IMG/VR virus record: IMGVR_UViG_3300033072_000473
Coordinates: 1-64,000 of that record
Reading direction: 5' to 3' (one strand)
Length of the DNA stretch: 64,000 bases
From: a virus
Taxonomy: Duplodnaviria; Caudoviricetes
Part shown: piece by piece, positions 54,545-63,969 of the stretch
Layout: the number at the start of each line of letters is the position of its first letter
Numbering within the stretch: the first letter of the stretch is position 1
Program-made: the position numbers and the translations under genes
The notes under the pieces: model-generated
Told to the model about the DNA's origin: nothing
Seen by the model: the letters and a program-made list of their open reading frames with translations, nothing else
Databases searched by the model: none

Positions 54545-54555
54545 ATTGAAATAAT

Positions 54556-54584
54556 ATTATATCAATGATTGAATAGGAAAACAA
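54556..54584 (-). promoter_or_regulatory. sigma70-type promoter, -10 box in the loop of an 11-bp inverted repeat
   Basis: TTGTTT-17-TATAAT; arms tcaatcattga (54539-54549) and tcaatgattga (54562-54572). Confidence 0.7.
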
Positions 54585-54633: not shown

Positions 54634-56049
54634 CTACAAACTATAACGATCGCTCATTACAGCTTTCAGCATAATTGCTTCAGGAGTAAATTCTTCTAAA
54701 TCGCCACTAAGGACTGCCTTCATAATAGAAGGCGAGAATCCCGAAATAAGTGCCACGCCTTGTTGATTAAACTTAGCAGGAACATTATCATTGGCGTTTA
54801 GATTCCAAAATACAACTTTAGGCACTTGATAGCCAGCACGCTGATATTTGCTGGCAATCATTTGCATAGCATTATGGTCGTACTCAGCGCAATGATCGAA
54901 CTGCATATCCGAAAGGATAAGCAAAATTTCAGGCATTTCGCTTTGTGGTACTTGATTTTTCACTGCTACACCCAGCACTTTATCAAAGGCCACATGTAGG
55001 TTAGTATTCATATTCCACAGAGATTTAACCATTTGTTGTGCACGCTGAACTACATCACCTTTGAGGCTAAGTAGTTCAGGAGTACCAGAGAAAGTAAGGA
55101 ACAAATCCTTGAACTTACCCTGGTTCTTTTCACTAAGGTATAAGCCTAGTGAAACTGCAACATCCATGCAGGTAGTTGAACCTTTACTACCGGCTGCACA
55201 ACTCATAGAGCCTGAAACATCTACCATCGGTAGAATACTTGCAGAACCTACGTAGTTTGGCAGCGCTTTCCACTGAGCTACAATCAAATCCTTTTGAGTT
55301 TGGTTATACTCAGCAGTATAATAAAGGTTAGCAACTCCCTTTAGCACGTCATAAGGGTAAACTGCACCAGCATTAACTTTTACAGTTTTATCGCCCTCTT
55401 TAAGTTTAGCTACATATTCTGCGTACTTGGGAGTATTACGGAAAAATGCAGTCTTATAACGTGCATGTGCTAGACTAGGAACATGGGAGAAATTAATCTC
55501 TTCCCACTGCTTAGAGCACATTTGTTGTTCTACAACTTTAGTCAAATTGACTAGAGTTTTACGATAGAACTTTGGTGACCAACCAAGATACTGACGGAAT
55601 TGTTCCGCCACACGGCCTTTACGTGGAGTCCACTTAGCCGCCAGACCGTTGCCTTCGGCAAGAGCTTGGCGCACTAGTTCGAACCCTACGTCTTGCATCT
55701 TAGGGGTTTGAAACGCAAACAAATCATCAAAGCGACCAAGGTCGGGAACCTTTTTAGCTAGACGAATTGCAGACTCCATATCATTCTTTTCCAGATATTG
55801 CAAAATATCACGGAAAATCTGGCGTTCACCTACCCCTTGACGAATATCACGAACCCATTGTGCAATGCGTAGCGCAATATCCTTGTTCTCTACTAGAGCT
55901 GCGACAAAATCAGGAATAATATCCTTACCACGAGATGCACCAATCTTAAAGAAAAGATCAGTACAAGCATTTTCAGTTGCCTTAAATGCTTTCATCCCAT
56001 TCTGGGTACGAACTTCTTGATTTTGTACAGCTTGAGCAAAAGTAGTCAT
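54634..56049 (-). CDS. Ro60/TROVE-like protein with C-terminal VWA domain (DUF2828-type)
   Basis: RDIRQG.GER, AAKW.PRK, I.FSHVPS.A..RY, VNAGAVYPYDV, MIDAS-like DVSGSM, ILSDMQFD, VVFWNL, LISGFSP. Confidence 0.8.
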   Translation of the reverse strand: MTTFAQAVQNQEVRTQNGMKAFKATENACTDLFFKIGASRGKDIIPDFVAALVENKDIALRIAQWVRDIRQGVGERQIFRDILQYLEKNDMESAIRLAKKVPDLGRFDDLFAFQTPKMQDVGFELVRQALAEGNGLAAKWTPRKGRVAEQFRQYLGWSPKFYRKTLVNLTKVVEQQMCSKQWEEINFSHVPSLAHARYKTAFFRNTPKYAEYVAKLKEGDKTVKVNAGAVYPYDVLKGVANLYYTAEYNQTQKDLIVAQWKALPNYVGSASILPMVDVSGSMSCAAGSKGSTTCMDVAVSLGLYLSEKNQGKFKDLFLTFSGTPELLSLKGDVVQRAQQMVKSLWNMNTNLHVAFDKVLGVAVKNQVPQSEMPEILLILSDMQFDHCAEYDHNAMQMIASKYQRAGYQVPKVVFWNLNANDNVPAKFNQQGVALISGFSPSIMKAVLSGDLEEFTPEAIMLKAVMSDRYSL

Positions 56050-58295: not shown

Positions 58296-58359
58296 AGTTT
58301 ATGAATTCTTTTAATTAAACTCAGAAATAGTATTTTATAAGTTTAATTAAAGTAATTCA

Positions 58360-58660
58360 AGTTTATTTTTCTGTTACTAGGAAAATAAACAAACCCTAAG
58401 CAGTATTTAGGCTGCTAAAGCAAAGGTATTATCGTTTGCGTTTACTTTATTTGCTTTTTACGTCTACTCCTGACGTGTTGCCCTATCAACTATCTCACGC
58501 TGTCGAAACCAGGTCAGGCCCATCAAAAGCATACTAGGGAATCGAACCCCATTTCTAGAATAGTTCCAAACGACCAGAGCGACTGGCAGTATGCTTTTGG
58601 TGGACCTGGGCGGAATCGAACCGCCGTCCAACGCGCCTTTATATCAAAGGTTATACAACA
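58360..58660 (-). ncRNA. ssrA: Circularly permuted (two-piece) tmRNA
   Basis: Acceptor piece (about 58660-58598) ends ggcggTTCGATTccgcc-caggtcc-A-CCA. After a 76-nt spacer, the coding piece starts GGGCCTGACCTGGTTTCGAC at 58521 (G3:U70). Tag GCA AAC GAT AAT ACC TTT GCT TTA GCA GCC TAA = ANDNTFALAA at 58439-58407. Outer ends approximate. Confidence 0.9.
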
Positions 58661-58661
58661 A

Positions 58662-58907
58662 TTACTTACAAGTAGCAAGCCACTTTCTGATTTCTTCTAC
58701 AGTCTTAACACCGCTAATAGAATGTTTACTAGGGAGATGTAGTAGTGTTGGTACTCCGCGGATCATATATTCATCTACAAGATCTGGGTGTACATCAATA
58801 TCTACTACTTCTACATCAATACCTAAATCTGCACTTTCCAAGTTTTTGGCAAGTGCCTTACATGGTTGACACCAACTAGCAGTAAATCTGAGAACTTTTT
58901 CTTGCAT
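58662..58907 (-). CDS. Thioredoxin-like protein (start moved to MQEKVL)
   Basis: WCQPC active site, cis-Pro GVPTL; SD ggag. Confidence 0.88.
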   Translation of the reverse strand: MQEKVLRFTASWCQPCKALAKNLESADLGIDVEVVDIDVHPDLVDEYMIRGVPTLLHLPSKHSISGVKTVEEIRKWLATCK

Positions 58908-59022: not shown

Positions 59023-59343
59023 TGGTACCCGTGGCCGGAATCGAACCGGCATGCTTGCGCGAGGGATTTTAAGCGGTTATGTCCTAAAGTTTCCTAAAGG
59101 CCCGGACTATCTCTTTACCTTCAACACTACTTGTTAAGGTAGTGGGCGTTCTTGCTGGTTATTAAGAGGGCTAAACCTCTCCAGTAGTCTCTACACCTTC
59201 CAATACTGTAGTATTGGCTTGGCTCGCGATTGCCATTTTACAGACTCTCCCGAATTAACCCACAGTTTATCTAACTATTTCTAATTAGAGGGGACTATCA
59301 GTTTCTGCTGATCCCTTGTGTCTTCCTATTTCACCACACGGGC
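59023..59343 (-). tRNA. tRNA-Leu(TAA) interrupted by a group I intron
   Basis: 5' exon gcccgtg...cacaaggga(t); 3' exon (c)ttaaaatccct...gccggTTCGATTccggc-cacgggt-A-CCA. Confidence 0.88.
59074..59310 (-). mobile_element. ORF-less group I intron, about 237 nt, IC3-like core
   Basis: P1 gggaU pairs with Gtccc (U.G); Q ggcaatcgcgagcc, R gtgtagagactac, S aagagatagtcc; GAAA-capped P9; terminal G. Confidence 0.85.
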
Positions 59344-59344
59344 A

Positions 59345-60061
59345 TTATGTTCCATAATGCTTTAAGTTATACTCTTCTAGATCTATTCTGTTTCCTTTTG
59401 CAATATTCTCTTCTGGAGTTAAATATTGCAGATTGGCAACAACGTGTAGCCCAGATACTAGCTCACCTTTTAATGGTAATATATGATCTACATGTAACCC
59501 TTTAGGGCAGTTCCTATAAAATTCTTGTAAACCTTTTATATCTTCCCAATTAACGCACCGTAAAGAACGTTCACCTTTATAGTGCTGATTTCGCTCTAGA
59601 ATTTTAGTATAATTCTTTTCATAAGACCGTTTATGTGCTTCTTTAGTACTGTCTTTTGAATACGCAATTTTATTTAATTCTTTTCTACAACTTTTACAAT
59701 AATGGTGTCTACCACAAGTTGCACTATTGTCTATATCAAATTCTTTGAAGGTCTTTATCTCTCTACAGGAGATACAAAGTTTATACTCAATAAATATTAG
59801 TAATTTCCACTTCCAAGTTTCGTTGCCGCCGTTTAGCTTTCCAAATTTTGGAACAAAGTATTCATCTAATACTCTATTAATGGTTTGCGCACCTCTATTC
59901 AATAGTTTAGCAGCTTTTGGTATTGTACCTTGCTCAAGTATGGCTAAAATCATATCACCGGCCAATACTTCGGCAGTATTGGATCTAGCCTTTCTTAGCA
60001 CTGTATTATACTCTAAATTAAGTTTATTAAGTATTAAAGTTGTTAATTCTTGATTTGTCAT
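59345..60061 (-). CDS. Free-standing HNH endonuclease (start moved to MTNQEL)
   Basis: CxxC pairs; HVDHILPL...GLHVVANLQYL...N..K.N; SD ggagg. Confidence 0.88.
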   Translation of the reverse strand: MTNQELTTLILNKLNLEYNTVLRKARSNTAEVLAGDMILAILEQGTIPKAAKLLNRGAQTINRVLDEYFVPKFGKLNGGNETWKWKLLIFIEYKLCISCREIKTFKEFDIDNSATCGRHHYCKSCRKELNKIAYSKDSTKEAHKRSYEKNYTKILERNQHYKGERSLRCVNWEDIKGLQEFYRNCPKGLHVDHILPLKGELVSGLHVVANLQYLTPEENIAKGNRIDLEEYNLKHYGT

Positions 60062-60080
60062 TTGTGTCCTCCATTTAAAT

Positions 60081-60109
60081 ATTATAAATTTAGAAGACAT
60101 AAAAGTCAA
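60081..60109 (-). promoter_or_regulatory. Promoter of the HNH gene
   Basis: TTGACT-17-TATAAT; spacer tgtcttc can pair with SD ggaggaca. Confidence 0.75.
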
Positions 60110-60119
60110 ATTTAATTTT

Positions 60120-60203
60120 TGGTACCCTCGGTCGGACTCGAACCGACACGCAACTAAGCCCAGGGCCTAAACCTGGTGGATATACCAATTCTCCTACGAG
60201 GGT
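60120..60203 (-). tRNA. tRNA-Leu(TAG)
   Basis: ccagg-TT TAG GC-cctgg, variable arm, A73, CCA. Confidence 0.9.
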
Positions 60204-60205
60204 AT

Positions 60206-60934
60206 AGTATAGGAAATTGTTCTTCGTCTACTTCACATGCACTTCTTGAAACCTACAAGTACTAGCGTGTGCCATGTTTTTCGATCTCGCTCAGAAGTAG
60301 GTTCTAGCGTTATCTCTCCGAGATCTATTTAGACTAGATATACTAAGGGCATGACTCCCGTTCTACTATTAGAATAAATAAACTCTGCGTTAAGAACAAT
60401 TTACTATACTGACAGGCACTCCATACTGTCATTAGGGGACGGGTATCGCAATCCACACGGGGTTCATTTGTCATGGTAACTACCTAGTATCACGGGAACT
60501 CCTACCCGAGTCTAGACTAATTGGGAATACTAGTAACGGCTTTCTGTTATCTCATAATTCAGTAGCTCACCAAACCCATTGGCCTTGTCACATAAGTCGC
60601 CCAAATATGAGTCGGGTCGAAACAGAGTACTTGGTCTACGGCTTGTTACCAGTATAGTTAAGAAGCATCTTTGGCTGTCCCGAAGTTCGAAAACAAGGTA
60701 AAGTCCTACAAGTTGCTTCTTGACTATACCGCCTCCGCCGAGGCATTGTGGTATAGTGTTAGTGATACCTAAGGTAATCCGCACTCCTTTGTATCCCCTA
60801 AAAGGGCTGAGACTCGAACTCAGTCGGTATTAAGTATCTTTTAAAGGTCTTGCTAACTTCCGACCCCCTAGTCTAACTGTCGACAAGTTACTAGGATTTA
60901 GTCTGATTCTTTGTTTATCTTTCGCCGAATCAGA
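60206..60934 (-). ncRNA. Large (about 730 nt) highly structured ncRNA candidate, GOLLD/ROOL-like by size and context
   Basis: Runs from a promoter to tRNA-Leu with no credible ORF; many helices, a T-arm (60807-60823) and repeated AGTA/GAA loop-E-like words. Confidence 0.55.
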
Positions 60935-60940
60935 AATAAT

Positions 60941-60969
60941 ATTATACGCTAATAGTTAGCGATAAACAA
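60941..60969 (-). promoter_or_regulatory. sigma70-type promoter of the large ncRNA
   Basis: TTGTTT-17-TATAAT; palindrome cgctaa-tag-ttagcg in spacer. Confidence 0.7.
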
Positions 60970-60977
60970 GTCAAAAT

Positions 60978-61979
60978 TTACTTATTCATTAGCATCATCA
61001 TCATGAGCATATTTTGATCCATCTGCTTTCCGCCCATCATGCTCATCATAGCAAAAGTTTTCATATCAAACTCTTTGCCGTCGCCCATCATCATAGCCAT
61101 CATCATAGGATTGGTATTTTCACCAAACATATTCTTAACGGCTAGAACAGTATTCTTACCGAAGAATAGGTTGGTTACTTGCCCAACCTGCTTTACTTCG
61201 CCGTTAAGCGTAACTACTTCATAGCCACTTTCAGTTTTCTGCTTGAAGAAATAGGCATCTTGCCCGCTAATGATAATGTCCCCTTCTTCTAGCGTTTCTA
61301 CAGCCACTCGCATAGCAAAAGCTGGTACTTTAACACCAAAATCAGTAATAGGATTAACGGAAACGCCACCATCAACGTAGACAGAAATCCCGTCTTGGGA
61401 CTGTACACCGAACTTTCCTGATTGGATGTCGATTGCAACATTCTTGACCTCACGAAAGAAAGAGTCACGCATATTAGATTGAATGTTCATTTGTGTATCC
61501 TTAGATTTATTAAGCTGTTCGTTAACGTATTTTTTAGTTGCTACTTCTTCACCATTTACTACTAAGTTTCCAGTAGTGTTGCTAGTTAAATTAGCAAAGC
61601 GCTTAGAGGTTCCTGAAGCTGCAAAAGTATATGCCGCAGTATTTTGTAGTGAAGAAGGAAGTCGTTGAAGAATTAAGTAGTTAGGAGTATATTTAGTGAT
61701 AGTGTATTTAGCACCGTAACCGGCGAGTGTTTGTGCTGCTGCTACCTCATATTGAGGTATATCAGCATTGCGAATATACGCAACATGTACACCCTTAATC
61801 AACACTGCGTAGGCCTGCCCATTAACTCCATTAGTATTATACTCATGTTTAATCTCAACCTCAGGTTTAATACTACCTGGATCATTAATTTGAGGAATAA
61901 AACTTTTTAGGTATTCTTGATCTTGCGTAGGTCTAAACCGCATACCTACTGCAATTAATTTATCTGGATATGAGGACAT
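60978..61979 (-). CDS. Hypothetical protein: HIRAN-like N-domain and Met-rich C-terminus
   Basis: VGMRFR...E..N.....A.AV......VAYI; ends with Met-rich helices. Confidence 0.6.
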   Translation of the reverse strand: MSSYPDKLIAVGMRFRPTQDQEYLKSFIPQINDPGSIKPEVEIKHEYNTNGVNGQAYAVLIKGVHVAYIRNADIPQYEVAAAQTLAGYGAKYTITKYTPNYLILQRLPSSLQNTAAYTFAASGTSKRFANLTSNTTGNLVVNGEEVATKKYVNEQLNKSKDTQMNIQSNMRDSFFREVKNVAIDIQSGKFGVQSQDGISVYVDGGVSVNPITDFGVKVPAFAMRVAVETLEEGDIIISGQDAYFFKQKTESGYEVVTLNGEVKQVGQVTNLFFGKNTVLAVKNMFGENTNPMMMAMMMGDGKEFDMKTFAMMSMMGGKQMDQNMLMMMMLMNK

Positions 61980-62086: not shown

Positions 62087-62101
62087 CAAACTGTAAATAA
62101 T

Positions 62102-62130
62102 ATTATACAGAGATTAACTACTAAAAACAA
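62102..62130 (-). promoter_or_regulatory. sigma70-type promoter of the TAT tRNA
   Basis: TTGTTT-17-TATAAT. Confidence 0.7.
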
Positions 62131-62132
62131 GT

Positions 62133-62309
62133 TTAAATTTCTAGATATGAAATAAACGCATCACAGTTTGCACAGTAATCGTATATATCTTCTTCAGTAT
62201 CAAAGTCACCACCTAGAAAATTATTCATAGCCTCTAAGGGTGAACAGTCGTAGTATGCTGCTTGTTTAATTTCACCATCAAATAGTGAAAGATATGCAAT
62301 TATAATCAT
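62133..62309 (-). CDS. 58-aa acidic hypothetical protein (MIIIAYLS...); not in ORF track
   Basis: TAATG overlap with the UV-endonuclease stop. Confidence 0.55.
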   Translation of the reverse strand: MIIIAYLSLFDGEIKQAAYYDCSPLEAMNNFLGGDFDTEEDIYDYCANCDAFISYLEI

Positions 62310-63307
62310 TAAATAACTCCCTGTGCAAATTGAAAACTAGCTAAATTCTTTTCTTTAGCCTCACACATAATATCAACATATGGTAAAAACTCTTTAGCCC
62401 ACTGATTACACCAAGTATTATGATAGTAATCACTATGTGCGCGAAGTTTAGCTTTAGTTAGACCACTAGCCAATAGTTGCTTAAGATCGTATGGTTGATC
62501 TCGGTCAAGATTGCCTACATGCTCTATACGGCTAACTGCATAGTGCAGTGTGGGTCGCACACCTCGCCAAGATTCAATAACCTGCTGTACTCGTGGATCA
62601 CTAGGTTTAATATACTCACCGGTAGCAATCCAGTGATGATGAATATCAAGCACTAAAGCGCAACGGTCTTTAAGCTCTAGTGAGTGTTCAAGATGCCAAG
62701 AGAACTCAGCATTTTCAATAGTTAAACAGTTTCTAGCTTCGCGACTGAGTTTTTTAAGAACTTGCTTAATGCCTTCAGGCCCGCGCTTACCGCCAATGTG
62801 TACATTAATTTTAAAGTCTTGAAACTCTTGACCATAGCCCATCCAACGAGCAATGTCTGTATGATATTCAAACTCATAAATTGAGTTTTCTACGATTTGA
62901 TCGTTATCACTGGCAAGAACGCAGAACTGCCCAGGGTGAAATGAAAGTCGAATATCGTGTTTACGTGCTAGATCGCCGCACTCTTTAAAGCCGCGTTCTA
63001 GTAAGTTTTGCATATCTAGTTCTTGATAACACCACATATAGTCTTCATGCGTATATGCAGTAAGCAAGTCGCTAGTCATGCGAAACATACGCAAATGTTC
63101 AGGCTGCTTAGCTAAGAACAAGATTTGCTTTTTAAGTGCTTCAATATTAAACTTAGCAAGAGCGTATAATCGCTCATATGCTTTTTGTTTAGTTTGTTTA
63201 GATAGCCAAGCAATAGTAGTTGAACTAGTATTCAAGGCTTTATCTGCCGTTCCCGGACTTTGTTGAATCTTACACGCAAAACCAATTCTAGGAATTTGTT
63301 TGAACAT
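62309..63307 (-). CDS. uvsE: UV damage endonuclease (UvsE/UvdE family)
   Basis: RIGFACK, FRMTSD, RLSFHPGQF.VL, NVHIG, LTIEN, LDIHHH, LRAHSD, MCEAKEK. Confidence 0.9.
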   Translation of the reverse strand: MFKQIPRIGFACKIQQSPGTADKALNTSSTTIAWLSKQTKQKAYERLYALAKFNIEALKKQILFLAKQPEHLRMFRMTSDLLTAYTHEDYMWCYQELDMQNLLERGFKECGDLARKHDIRLSFHPGQFCVLASDNDQIVENSIYEFEYHTDIARWMGYGQEFQDFKINVHIGGKRGPEGIKQVLKKLSREARNCLTIENAEFSWHLEHSLELKDRCALVLDIHHHWIATGEYIKPSDPRVQQVIESWRGVRPTLHYAVSRIEHVGNLDRDQPYDLKQLLASGLTKAKLRAHSDYYHNTWCNQWAKEFLPYVDIMCEAKEKNLASFQFAQGVI

Positions 63308-63372: not shown

Positions 63373-63969
63373 TTATACTTCAAATTTATTATGTTTTGAA
63401 CAATTATCTTGTGCAGGTAAATATTGTAAATTAATTTCTACATGAAGCCCCGATACTAATTCTCCCTGTAGTGGGATTATATGGTCTACATGATAACCTT
63501 CGGGACAGTTTTTATATATTTCTTTTATTCTTGAAATATTAGCCCAATTTGGAGTTCTTTGTAACTTGCTACACTTATAAGTAGCTGTACGTTCTGTTTG
63601 TGTCTTTTTAGTTGTAGTATAATGACAGGTTTTACACATTGTTTGTAGCCCGTCTTTCCTACTAGCGTTTTTTCTAAAATTATCTATACTATGTACTTTA
63701 TTGCAGTGACTACAGTATTTTAGTTCAAATAAAGGCAGTATATACGAATGTATTTTTGTAGCAGACTTTGTTCTATTAGGAAATAGTTCTGATAGAAACT
63801 TTGAAATAGTTTTAGCATCTTTATTTAAAAGATATGCTAAGTTATAATTTTTAAACTTAGAAAAAGTATCTATTACTAATTCCGGGCATAAGTTATAGTT
63901 TTTACATATAGTAAAATACTGAGGTTGTAGCACTAGTATGCAATTAAGCAAAATTTCTTTATCTGTCAT
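63373..63969 (-). CDS. Free-standing HNH endonuclease, second copy
   Basis: CSHC, CKTC; HVDHIIPLQGELVSGLHVEINLQYL..N.SK.N; same family as 59345-60061. Confidence 0.88.
   Translation of the reverse strand: MTDKEILLNCILVLQPQYFTICKNYNLCPELVIDTFSKFKNYNLAYLLNKDAKTISKFLSELFPNRTKSATKIHSYILPLFELKYCSHCNKVHSIDNFRKNASRKDGLQTMCKTCHYTTTKKTQTERTATYKCSKLQRTPNWANISRIKEIYKNCPEGYHVDHIIPLQGELVSGLHVEINLQYLPAQDNCSKHNKFEV

Follow-up and report, generated by a model that had tools for sequence, protein, structure and literature searches.

A stretch of about 730 nt that is poor in open reading frames (ORFs), located at positions 60206-60934 of a Caudoviricetes genome fragment (the window, i.e. the first 64,000 nt of IMG/VR virus record IMGVR_UViG_3300033072_000473), probably encodes a member of an uncatalogued family of large structured non-coding RNAs, modular in build, that lie in the tRNA islands of uncultured T5-like phages. 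The RNA is read from the minus strand (60934 to 60206), co-oriented with the surrounding genes, and has a G+C content of 42-46% versus about 31-39% in the flanking genes. The proposal of a large structured non-coding RNA at this site came from a sequence-only reading, and it is supported by covariation among the homologues we gathered. The family is defined by a conserved core of ~260 nt (window 60895-60657) with seven nested helices (P1-P3 and P5-P8) and a pseudoknot (PK1); in the window, three variable domains (D2, D3 and D4) follow on the 3' side.

Homologues were collected from three sources: nhmmer searches, one pattern scan, and the neighbourhoods of relatives of the 333-aa protein whose gene (minus strand) ends at 60978, just upstream of the RNA. 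This protein carries no family annotation (Pfam, PHROG) and has many metagenomic relatives. The DNA around two of them (loci L002 and L005) contained near-identical copies of the RNA (93%), and nhmmer detected distant copies of the core in L006 and L009. Two blocks common to these four loci and the window provided a search pattern (TTGTAGGNCTTTA, 12-42 nt, GACAGCCA), which returned 26 stretches from metagenome contigs. About half of them were verified by profile or covariance-model searches (L022, L024, L025, L026, L032, L036 and copies, and L034/L038); the same searches rejected the remainder as chance matches. L060 and L062 were added from further protein neighbourhoods. Altogether, 13 distinct homologous cores and two partial forms were found, all on metagenomic contigs, one of which is labelled activated sludge. 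The pattern also gave eight matches in 185,579 reference prokaryote genomes, none of which was confirmed by nhmmer, and in a BLAST search against 50,697 phage records the tRNA alone matched. The exact 18-nt P2 block had no match in viral contigs; a relaxed version had five, of which four lay in coding DNA and were due to chance.

The longer contigs with the core carry the T5 marker domain Phage_T5_A2, and the DNA polymerase encoded in the window is 47% identical to polymerases of cultured Demerecviridae. The source phages are an uncultured clade of T5-like phages. A covariance model built on P5-P8 (R1) found no match in T5, Serratia phage Slocum, Erwinia phage KEY or Klebsiella phage SEL21, while the same search recovered the window's own record and that of L002 as a positive check.

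PK1 joins the P2 loop to the conserved strand CACUAACAC, ~90 nt downstream, through 5 bp; it is 96.9% paired, and three of its pairs are changed on both sides. In L024 the loop reads GGUAG and its partner CUACU (U-A to G-C), while L032 and L025 have GUGAG and CUCAC (U-A to G-C at a different position). A single A-to-G change in L002 turns an A-U into a G-U pair, and in L026 pairing is kept between GUUGA and UCAAC, one alignment column off. The closing pair of P2 itself alternates between G-C (seven sequences) and C-G (four sequences). Compensatory changes were further observed in six P6 pairs and in both P8 pairs. P7 is invariant across the alignment, and its pairing is predicted. The T-loop hairpin P3 is present in 11 of the 13 members; L024 and L062 have a three-way junction in its place. 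Approximately 50 nucleotides of the core are invariant, and most of these are unpaired. The hairpin of the 5' leader lacks covariation support because it is invariant in the four full-length homologues. Both the sequence and the predicted folds contain every helix listed in the sequence-only reading; actatacc/ggtatagt and aagaagca/tgcttctt correspond to P5 and P6, respectively.

Across the alignment of the 13 core sequences (A8), 95.6% of the cells pair versus 82.4% in shuffles, and 24 of the 44 core pairs show compensatory change on both sides. Not one of 500 shuffles reached the real alignment on any of five measures, in a test that takes no account of relatedness among the 13 sequences, four of which are close relatives. 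When partners were slid by 1-3 columns, pairing fell to 32-44%, and an 11-sequence alignment without the pseudoknot gave the same picture. The predicted minimum free energy (MFE) of the minus strand is not below that of shuffled sequences (z = -0.66), with z = -3.18 for the plus strand. The support for the structure is therefore covariation, not stability, and since stability was uninformative, the strand was decided by R1, which gives 100.7 bits for the minus strand against 17 bits for the plus strand and detects a single copy in the 87-kb record. An alternative suggested by RNAalifold, in which GUAUAG (the P5 3' strand) pairs with a downstream CUAUAC repeat, was rejected, since only the upstream partner is compatible with the two covarying positions of P5. 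A predicted duplex between the P1/P2 region and a 25-nt motif of D3 (-21.1 kcal/mol) was the best of 612 windows here but unremarkable in L060 and L022, and is thus not a conserved interaction. Antisense targets of two invariant arm strands were sought in the window, and none scored above chance.

Among catalogued RNAs, cmscan against Rfam 15 gave no match in the RNA stretch at the gathering thresholds, nor at E <= 10 over 59900-61300. GOLLD (RF02032, gathering threshold 150 bits) found no match at E <= 10 in this region, in the whole 87-kb record, or in L009, L011 and L060. ROOL (RF03087, 99.1 bits) was likewise negative over the same scope; as control genomes were also negative, the whole-record result is weak for ROOL and the cmscan of the region is the better evidence. 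L009, L011 and L060 had no large-RNA match in Rfam, and no description of the RNA family was found in the literature searched. The absence of an Rfam match together with strong covariation of a pseudoknotted core thus fits a new class, which is the outcome the sequence-only reading had envisaged in case the GOLLD and ROOL models gave no match and gathered homologues covaried.

Features of the RNA locus and its immediate surroundings (window coordinates; all on the minus strand).
Feature	Position	Strand	Sequence elements and support
Promoter-like region	60941-60974	-	TTGACT 60974-60969, 22-nt spacer, TATAAT 60946-60941; read from sequence
5' leader hairpin	60903-60933	-	CUGAUUC/GAAUCAG, 60933-60927 with 60909-60903; MFE and consensus folds
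P1 hairpin	60867-60895	-	CCUAGU/ACUAGG; A-U to C-G and G-C compensation; 98% of cells paired
P2 hairpin	60846-60865	-	GGUC/GACC; near-invariant 12-nt loop GGAAGUUAGCAA
PK1 5' strand	60857-60853	-	GUUAG; P2 loop bases
P3 T-loop hairpin	60807-60823	-	CUGAG, UUCGAGU, CUCAG; 5/5 pairs with compensatory change
P4 variable region	60771-60806	-	Between P3 and PK1 3' strand; length and sequence vary by lineage
Conserved strand	60756-60764	-	CACUAACAC; contains PK1 3' strand CUAAC 60762-60758
P5 hairpin	60723-60757	-	ACUAUACC ... GGUAUAGU, with inner GCCUC/GAGGC hairpin; 100% paired; three compensated pairs
Irregular arm P6-P7-P8	60659-60722	-	Invariant internal-loop strands UUGUAGGACUUUA and GACAGCCAAA
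D2	60527-60655	-	11-bp closing helix, AUACUGGUAAC with GUUACUAGUAU; includes ctagtat/atactag
D3	60410-60516	-	UCUAG/CUAGG helix, CGGG/CCCG hairpin, mini-hairpin, 25-nt motif, UGACAG/CUGUCA hairpin
D4 (205 nt)	60206-60410	-	Closing helix 60410-60392 with 60224-60206; MFE and consensus folds
84-aa ORF	60530-60784	-	GTG start; judged non-coding
tRNA-Leu(TAG)	60120-60203	-	2 nt 3' of the RNA; ARAGORN and Rfam (53 bits)

The domains 3' of the core behave as modules. D2, D3 and D4 each possess their own closing helix, are joined by linkers of 0-10 nt, and recur in other phages in other orders or combinations. Counterparts of D2 were identified in L022 and at L003:2409-2562 (nhmmer, E about 5e-6), the latter directly after a tRNA-Ala; there, the closing helix still pairs despite an entirely different sequence, and the 51-kb record of L003 contains no core. 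D3, with its near-invariant 25-nt motif at 60458-60434, has a counterpart at L022:1094-1008 (E = 1.8e-12), about 650 nt upstream of the L022 core. There, two helices are compensated (UCUAG/CUAGG to UCUGA/UCAGG, and CGGG/CCCG to UGGA/UCCG), and the mini-hairpin covaries among close copies. The 25-nt motif also exists as a separate promoter-to-hairpin unit of ~110 nt at L009:7147-7290 and in L060. For D4, the closing helix noted in the sequence-only reading proved correct, spanning 19 positions with one mismatch, and a D4-like domain with a compensated closing helix occupies the same position before a tRNA at L036:5335-5532, sharing the blocks GGCGAGAUCGAAA and AAGUAGACG with the window. An extra 5' domain is present in L009, L036 and L060. 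L060 and L032 lack D2-D4: the core is the last part of their RNA, followed directly by a tRNA in L060 and by an ORF in L032. As a separate observation, in the lineage of L011 a genuine tRNA-Tyr takes up the place of P1-P4 (L011:7490-7690) and is followed directly by the P5-P8 arm, which scores 71 bits against R1; here, a tRNA has apparently replaced the 5' half of the core.

All members of the family share a common setting: they always lie in a tRNA island, in tRNA orientation, and usually directly before a tRNA. The window has 19 tRNA genes and a permuted transfer-messenger RNA (tmRNA) on the minus strand, and the RNA lies within a tRNA/tmRNA island of 21 genes. The tRNA that follows the RNA varies by lineage (Leu, Tyr, Pro or Gly-like), and in L032 and L034 an ORF takes its place. 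In L062, the whole arrangement from promoter to D4 is retained (84% identity), with its end once more at tRNA-Leu(TAG). The L062 RNA is situated ~5 kb upstream of a homologue (about 51% identical) of the 333-aa protein and not, as in the window, just downstream of it. A seeming absence of the RNA from L004, the closest long relative, where the flanking protein is 91% identical, was rejected: because a 100-N scaffold gap (L004:5026-5125) falls exactly at the RNA site, and the last bases of D4 are visible after it, L004 is no evidence of absence. With its structure and repeat-like character, this region may pose difficulties for assembly.

A promoter-like signal is found at the 5' end. The reported TATAAT box just upstream of the ORF-poor stretch and the tRNA-Leu(TAG) 2 nt downstream were both confirmed (by sequence reading, and by ARAGORN and Rfam). 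A conserved putative transcript start, ATTATTTCTGA, lies directly 3' of the TATAAT box, and this TATAAT-ATTATTTCTGA motif recurs before other RNA/tRNA units in the window and in L009, L011, L060 and L062. Between the -35 and -10 elements, the latter four loci have 17 nt versus 22 nt in the window's lineage; the consensus promoter scan omitted the TTGACT/TATAAT site because of the 22-nt spacer. In addition, TGnTATAAT followed by ATTATTTCTGAGTCGG precedes many RNA/tRNA units, at 54547-54561, 60932-60946 and 62093-62107 of the window (minus strand) and in the same four loci, a recurrence that points to a common 5' leader or regulatory element. A scan found no terminator-like site between the RNA and tRNA-Leu(TAG); a single transcript cut by RNase P at the 5' end of the tRNA is therefore the simplest reading, and the two are probably on one transcript. 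The next promoter-like site (60109-60081) serves an HNH gene. The only ORF of the stretch exists as described, with 84 aa and no Pfam or PHROG match. It is frameshifted in L002, and in L062 it lacks a start and contains internal stops; it was therefore judged not to be coding. Neither ARAGORN nor Rfam (RF00005) called a tRNA cloverleaf inside 60206-60934.

From these features, we propose how the RNA might be made and used. A phage promoter of its own would drive a single transcription unit comprising the RNA and tRNA-Leu(TAG), and a cut by host RNase P at the 5' end of the tRNA would free the 3' end of the RNA. With the 5' leader hairpin and the closing helix of D4 shielding both ends, a stable RNA of ~730 nt could result, which, by analogy with GOLLD and ROOL, would be a self-contained folded RNA made during infection. 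Following the same analogy, the invariant core may represent the working centre, either as a binding platform or as a catalytic or assembly centre tied to the tRNA and translation apparatus, while the side domains could be exchangeable add-ons as in GOLLD RNAs. As a speculative extension that we regard as unlikely, the core could serve a new RNA-only machine as its active centre (in a ribozyme acting on tRNA or another RNA, or in a unit that self-assembles into a multimer like GOLLD and ROOL), with D2-D4 tuning or decorating it.

Several observations weigh against a single modular RNA as the product. The modules occur separately in other phages (the D3 motif as a unit of its own in L009 and L060, D2 alone in L003), the T-loop hairpin P3 is not universal, the -35 spacing in the window's lineage exceeds the usual spacing, the minus strand is no more stable than its shuffles, and the shuffle test, based on only 13 sequences, is blind to relatedness. 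As the modules occur apart elsewhere, the 730 nt may be cut into pieces. Our main rival explanation, somewhat unlikely and still the strongest competitor, is thus that the stretch is a precursor in which the core, D2, D3 and D4 are separate small stable RNAs, fused with tRNA-Leu and cut by host RNases. It would account for the individual closing helices and the short linkers, for the D3 motif with its own promoter and hairpin, for D2 alone after tRNA-Ala in the coreless L003 record and for the core without D2-D4 in L060 and L032, and the T4 and T5 tRNA clusters, with their small stable RNAs, would offer a parallel. However, the junctions between the modules revealed no processing signal, and the whole arrangement has been kept in L062 at a different genomic position. 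Moreover, GOLLD is a single RNA even though it joins conserved and variable parts (bioRxiv 10.1101/2024.12.08.627333). At the other extreme, the stretch could be nothing but a cis-acting structured leader of the tRNA-Leu operon that affects transcription, processing or stability and has no role of its own. The common promoter-like start and the abutting tRNA would fit, but the ~50 invariant nucleotides and the pseudoknot are kept even though the downstream tRNA differs, and an ORF rather than a tRNA follows in L032 and L034, which makes such a leader very improbable.

Other rivals assign the RNA to known types. A divergent GOLLD or ROOL RNA missed by the Rfam models would share its size, phage origin, tRNA neighbours and combination of conserved and variable parts (bioRxiv 10.1101/2024.12.08.627333), but neither RF02032 nor RF03087 matched the window, the record or three divergent relatives at E <= 10 (the ROOL negative being the weaker one), and we give this explanation hardly any weight. 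A giant Y-RNA-like partner of a DUF2828 protein, with GGUCGGAAG in P2 as putative binding site and the T-loop hairpin as tRNA-like part, is improbable as well, if a little less so. In its favour, a DUF2828/TROVE (Ro60-like) gene of 471 aa is located 4.6 kb downstream of the RNA (54634-56049, minus strand), DUF2828 is present at every long core-bearing locus (L009, L011, L060 and L062), and two coreless loci, L059 and L061, have no DUF2828 within 21 kb. Bacterial Y RNAs also combine the motif GNCGAA(N)G with T-like and D-like arms (PMC4201824). Yet the YrlA model (RF02553) found no match at E <= 10 in 59900-61300, and GGUCGGAAG has one extra G relative to GNCGAA(N)G and sits in a hairpin whose loop, the D-like one, is engaged in PK1. 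Tests of the association itself argue against the partnership: the record of L003 has DUF2828 without the core, and so do the three complete GenBank phages with the closest DUF2828 proteins. Obligate coupling of the core to the Ro60-like protein is hence unsupported, and the co-occurrence of the two is confounded by descent because the phages are related. We favour one large modular RNA of an uncatalogued family.

The surroundings of the RNA hold further features. tRNAs, the tmRNA and other genes lie between the RNA and the DUF2828 gene, whose closest GenBank phage homologues (43-48% identical proteins) are from Synechococcus, Citrobacter, Cronobacter, Aeromonas and Vibrio phages; a weak YrlA match was seen beside the DUF2828 gene of L009. 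Next to tRNA-Leu(TAG) is an HNH/endonuclease VII-like gene (59345-60109, minus strand), with a group I intron just downstream of it (59083-59310, minus strand; Rfam 59.6 bits). The tmRNA (58353-58713, minus strand) is of the permuted two-piece, betaproteobacterial type with the tag ANDNTFALAA and is common to L002, L003 and L004; its type hints at a betaproteobacterial host. Upstream in the same island are a UvdE-type UV endonuclease gene (62309-63307) and a second HNH/endonuclease VII-like gene (63373-63969, both minus strand).

Among the relatives, a second large structured RNA family was observed just upstream of the core (L009:7320-8180, L011:6570-7490, L060:4960-5560 and L062:4260-4560). 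Its members have a promoter of their own and a T-loop hairpin of the GUGGGUUGGAAUCCCAC type, and blocks such as ACCAAGAGUUAA..CUCAGAAA are common to them; the family had no Rfam match and was not found in the window. L011:8204-8259 is a type I hammerhead ribozyme (RF00163, 38.1 bits versus a gathering threshold of 34) inside the tRNA/RNA island. Directly after the core of L060, ARAGORN called an 88-nt tRNA-Pro(TGG) with a long extra arm (L060:6044-6131), which the Rfam tRNA model did not list at E <= 10.

Large, intricately folded RNAs of bacteria and phages are rare, and every new class to date has opened up new biology or a new RNA architecture; for GOLLD, ROOL and OLE, the formation of RNA-only assemblies was recently demonstrated. 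With the T5-like phages, the family described here would contribute a different phage group and an independent example, and it strengthens the pattern that phage tRNA islands harbour uncatalogued structured RNAs. Its compact, highly conserved and pseudoknotted core suits structure determination, and the fact that the same domains are fused in one phage and apart in another amounts to a natural experiment on which parts cooperate. Together with the tmRNA, the Ro60-like gene and an intron-bearing tRNA, the RNA points to a phage toolkit directed at the host's RNA and translation machinery.

Compared with known systems, the RNA resembles GOLLD and ROOL in size and setting and is a member of neither. 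The tRNA clusters of T4 and T5 contain small stable non-tRNA RNAs that are co-transcribed and processed with the tRNAs. Our RNA is likewise a non-tRNA RNA of a phage tRNA cluster, but these small RNAs measure only about 100-140 nt, and T5 has no match to R1. Bacterial Y RNAs have GNCGAA(N)G near their 5' end in addition to T-like and D-like arms, which make up a tRNA-like domain, and the motifs GNCGAA(N)G and GGUCCGA contact Ro60 (PMC4201824). With YrlA, the RNA shares a T-loop hairpin and a Ro60-like gene in the same genome, and its short GGUCGGAAG motif resembles these contact motifs; it differs in being 6-7 times larger, in the lack of a YrlA match, in not adjoining the Ro60-like gene and in placing the motif within a hairpin and pseudoknot. 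ROOL, too, is large and pseudoknotted; it occurs in phages and prophages, often in the vicinity of tRNA islands, and assembles into an RNA-only multimeric nanocage; we know of no protein partner or function for it. Here, the ROOL model does not match, and the hosts and environments differ (metagenome contigs in our case). GOLLD self-assembles into a 14-mer RNA nanocage. With GOLLD, too, there is no model match, the core is here on the 5' side with the variable domains 3' of it, and the helices and pseudoknot were derived afresh. GOLLD comprises a conserved and a less conserved, variable part and has tRNAs in or beside the RNA (bioRxiv 10.1101/2024.12.08.627333), and our RNA is likewise phage-encoded, structured, longer than 700 nt (GOLLD about 800), located in or next to tRNA islands, and divided into conserved and variable parts.
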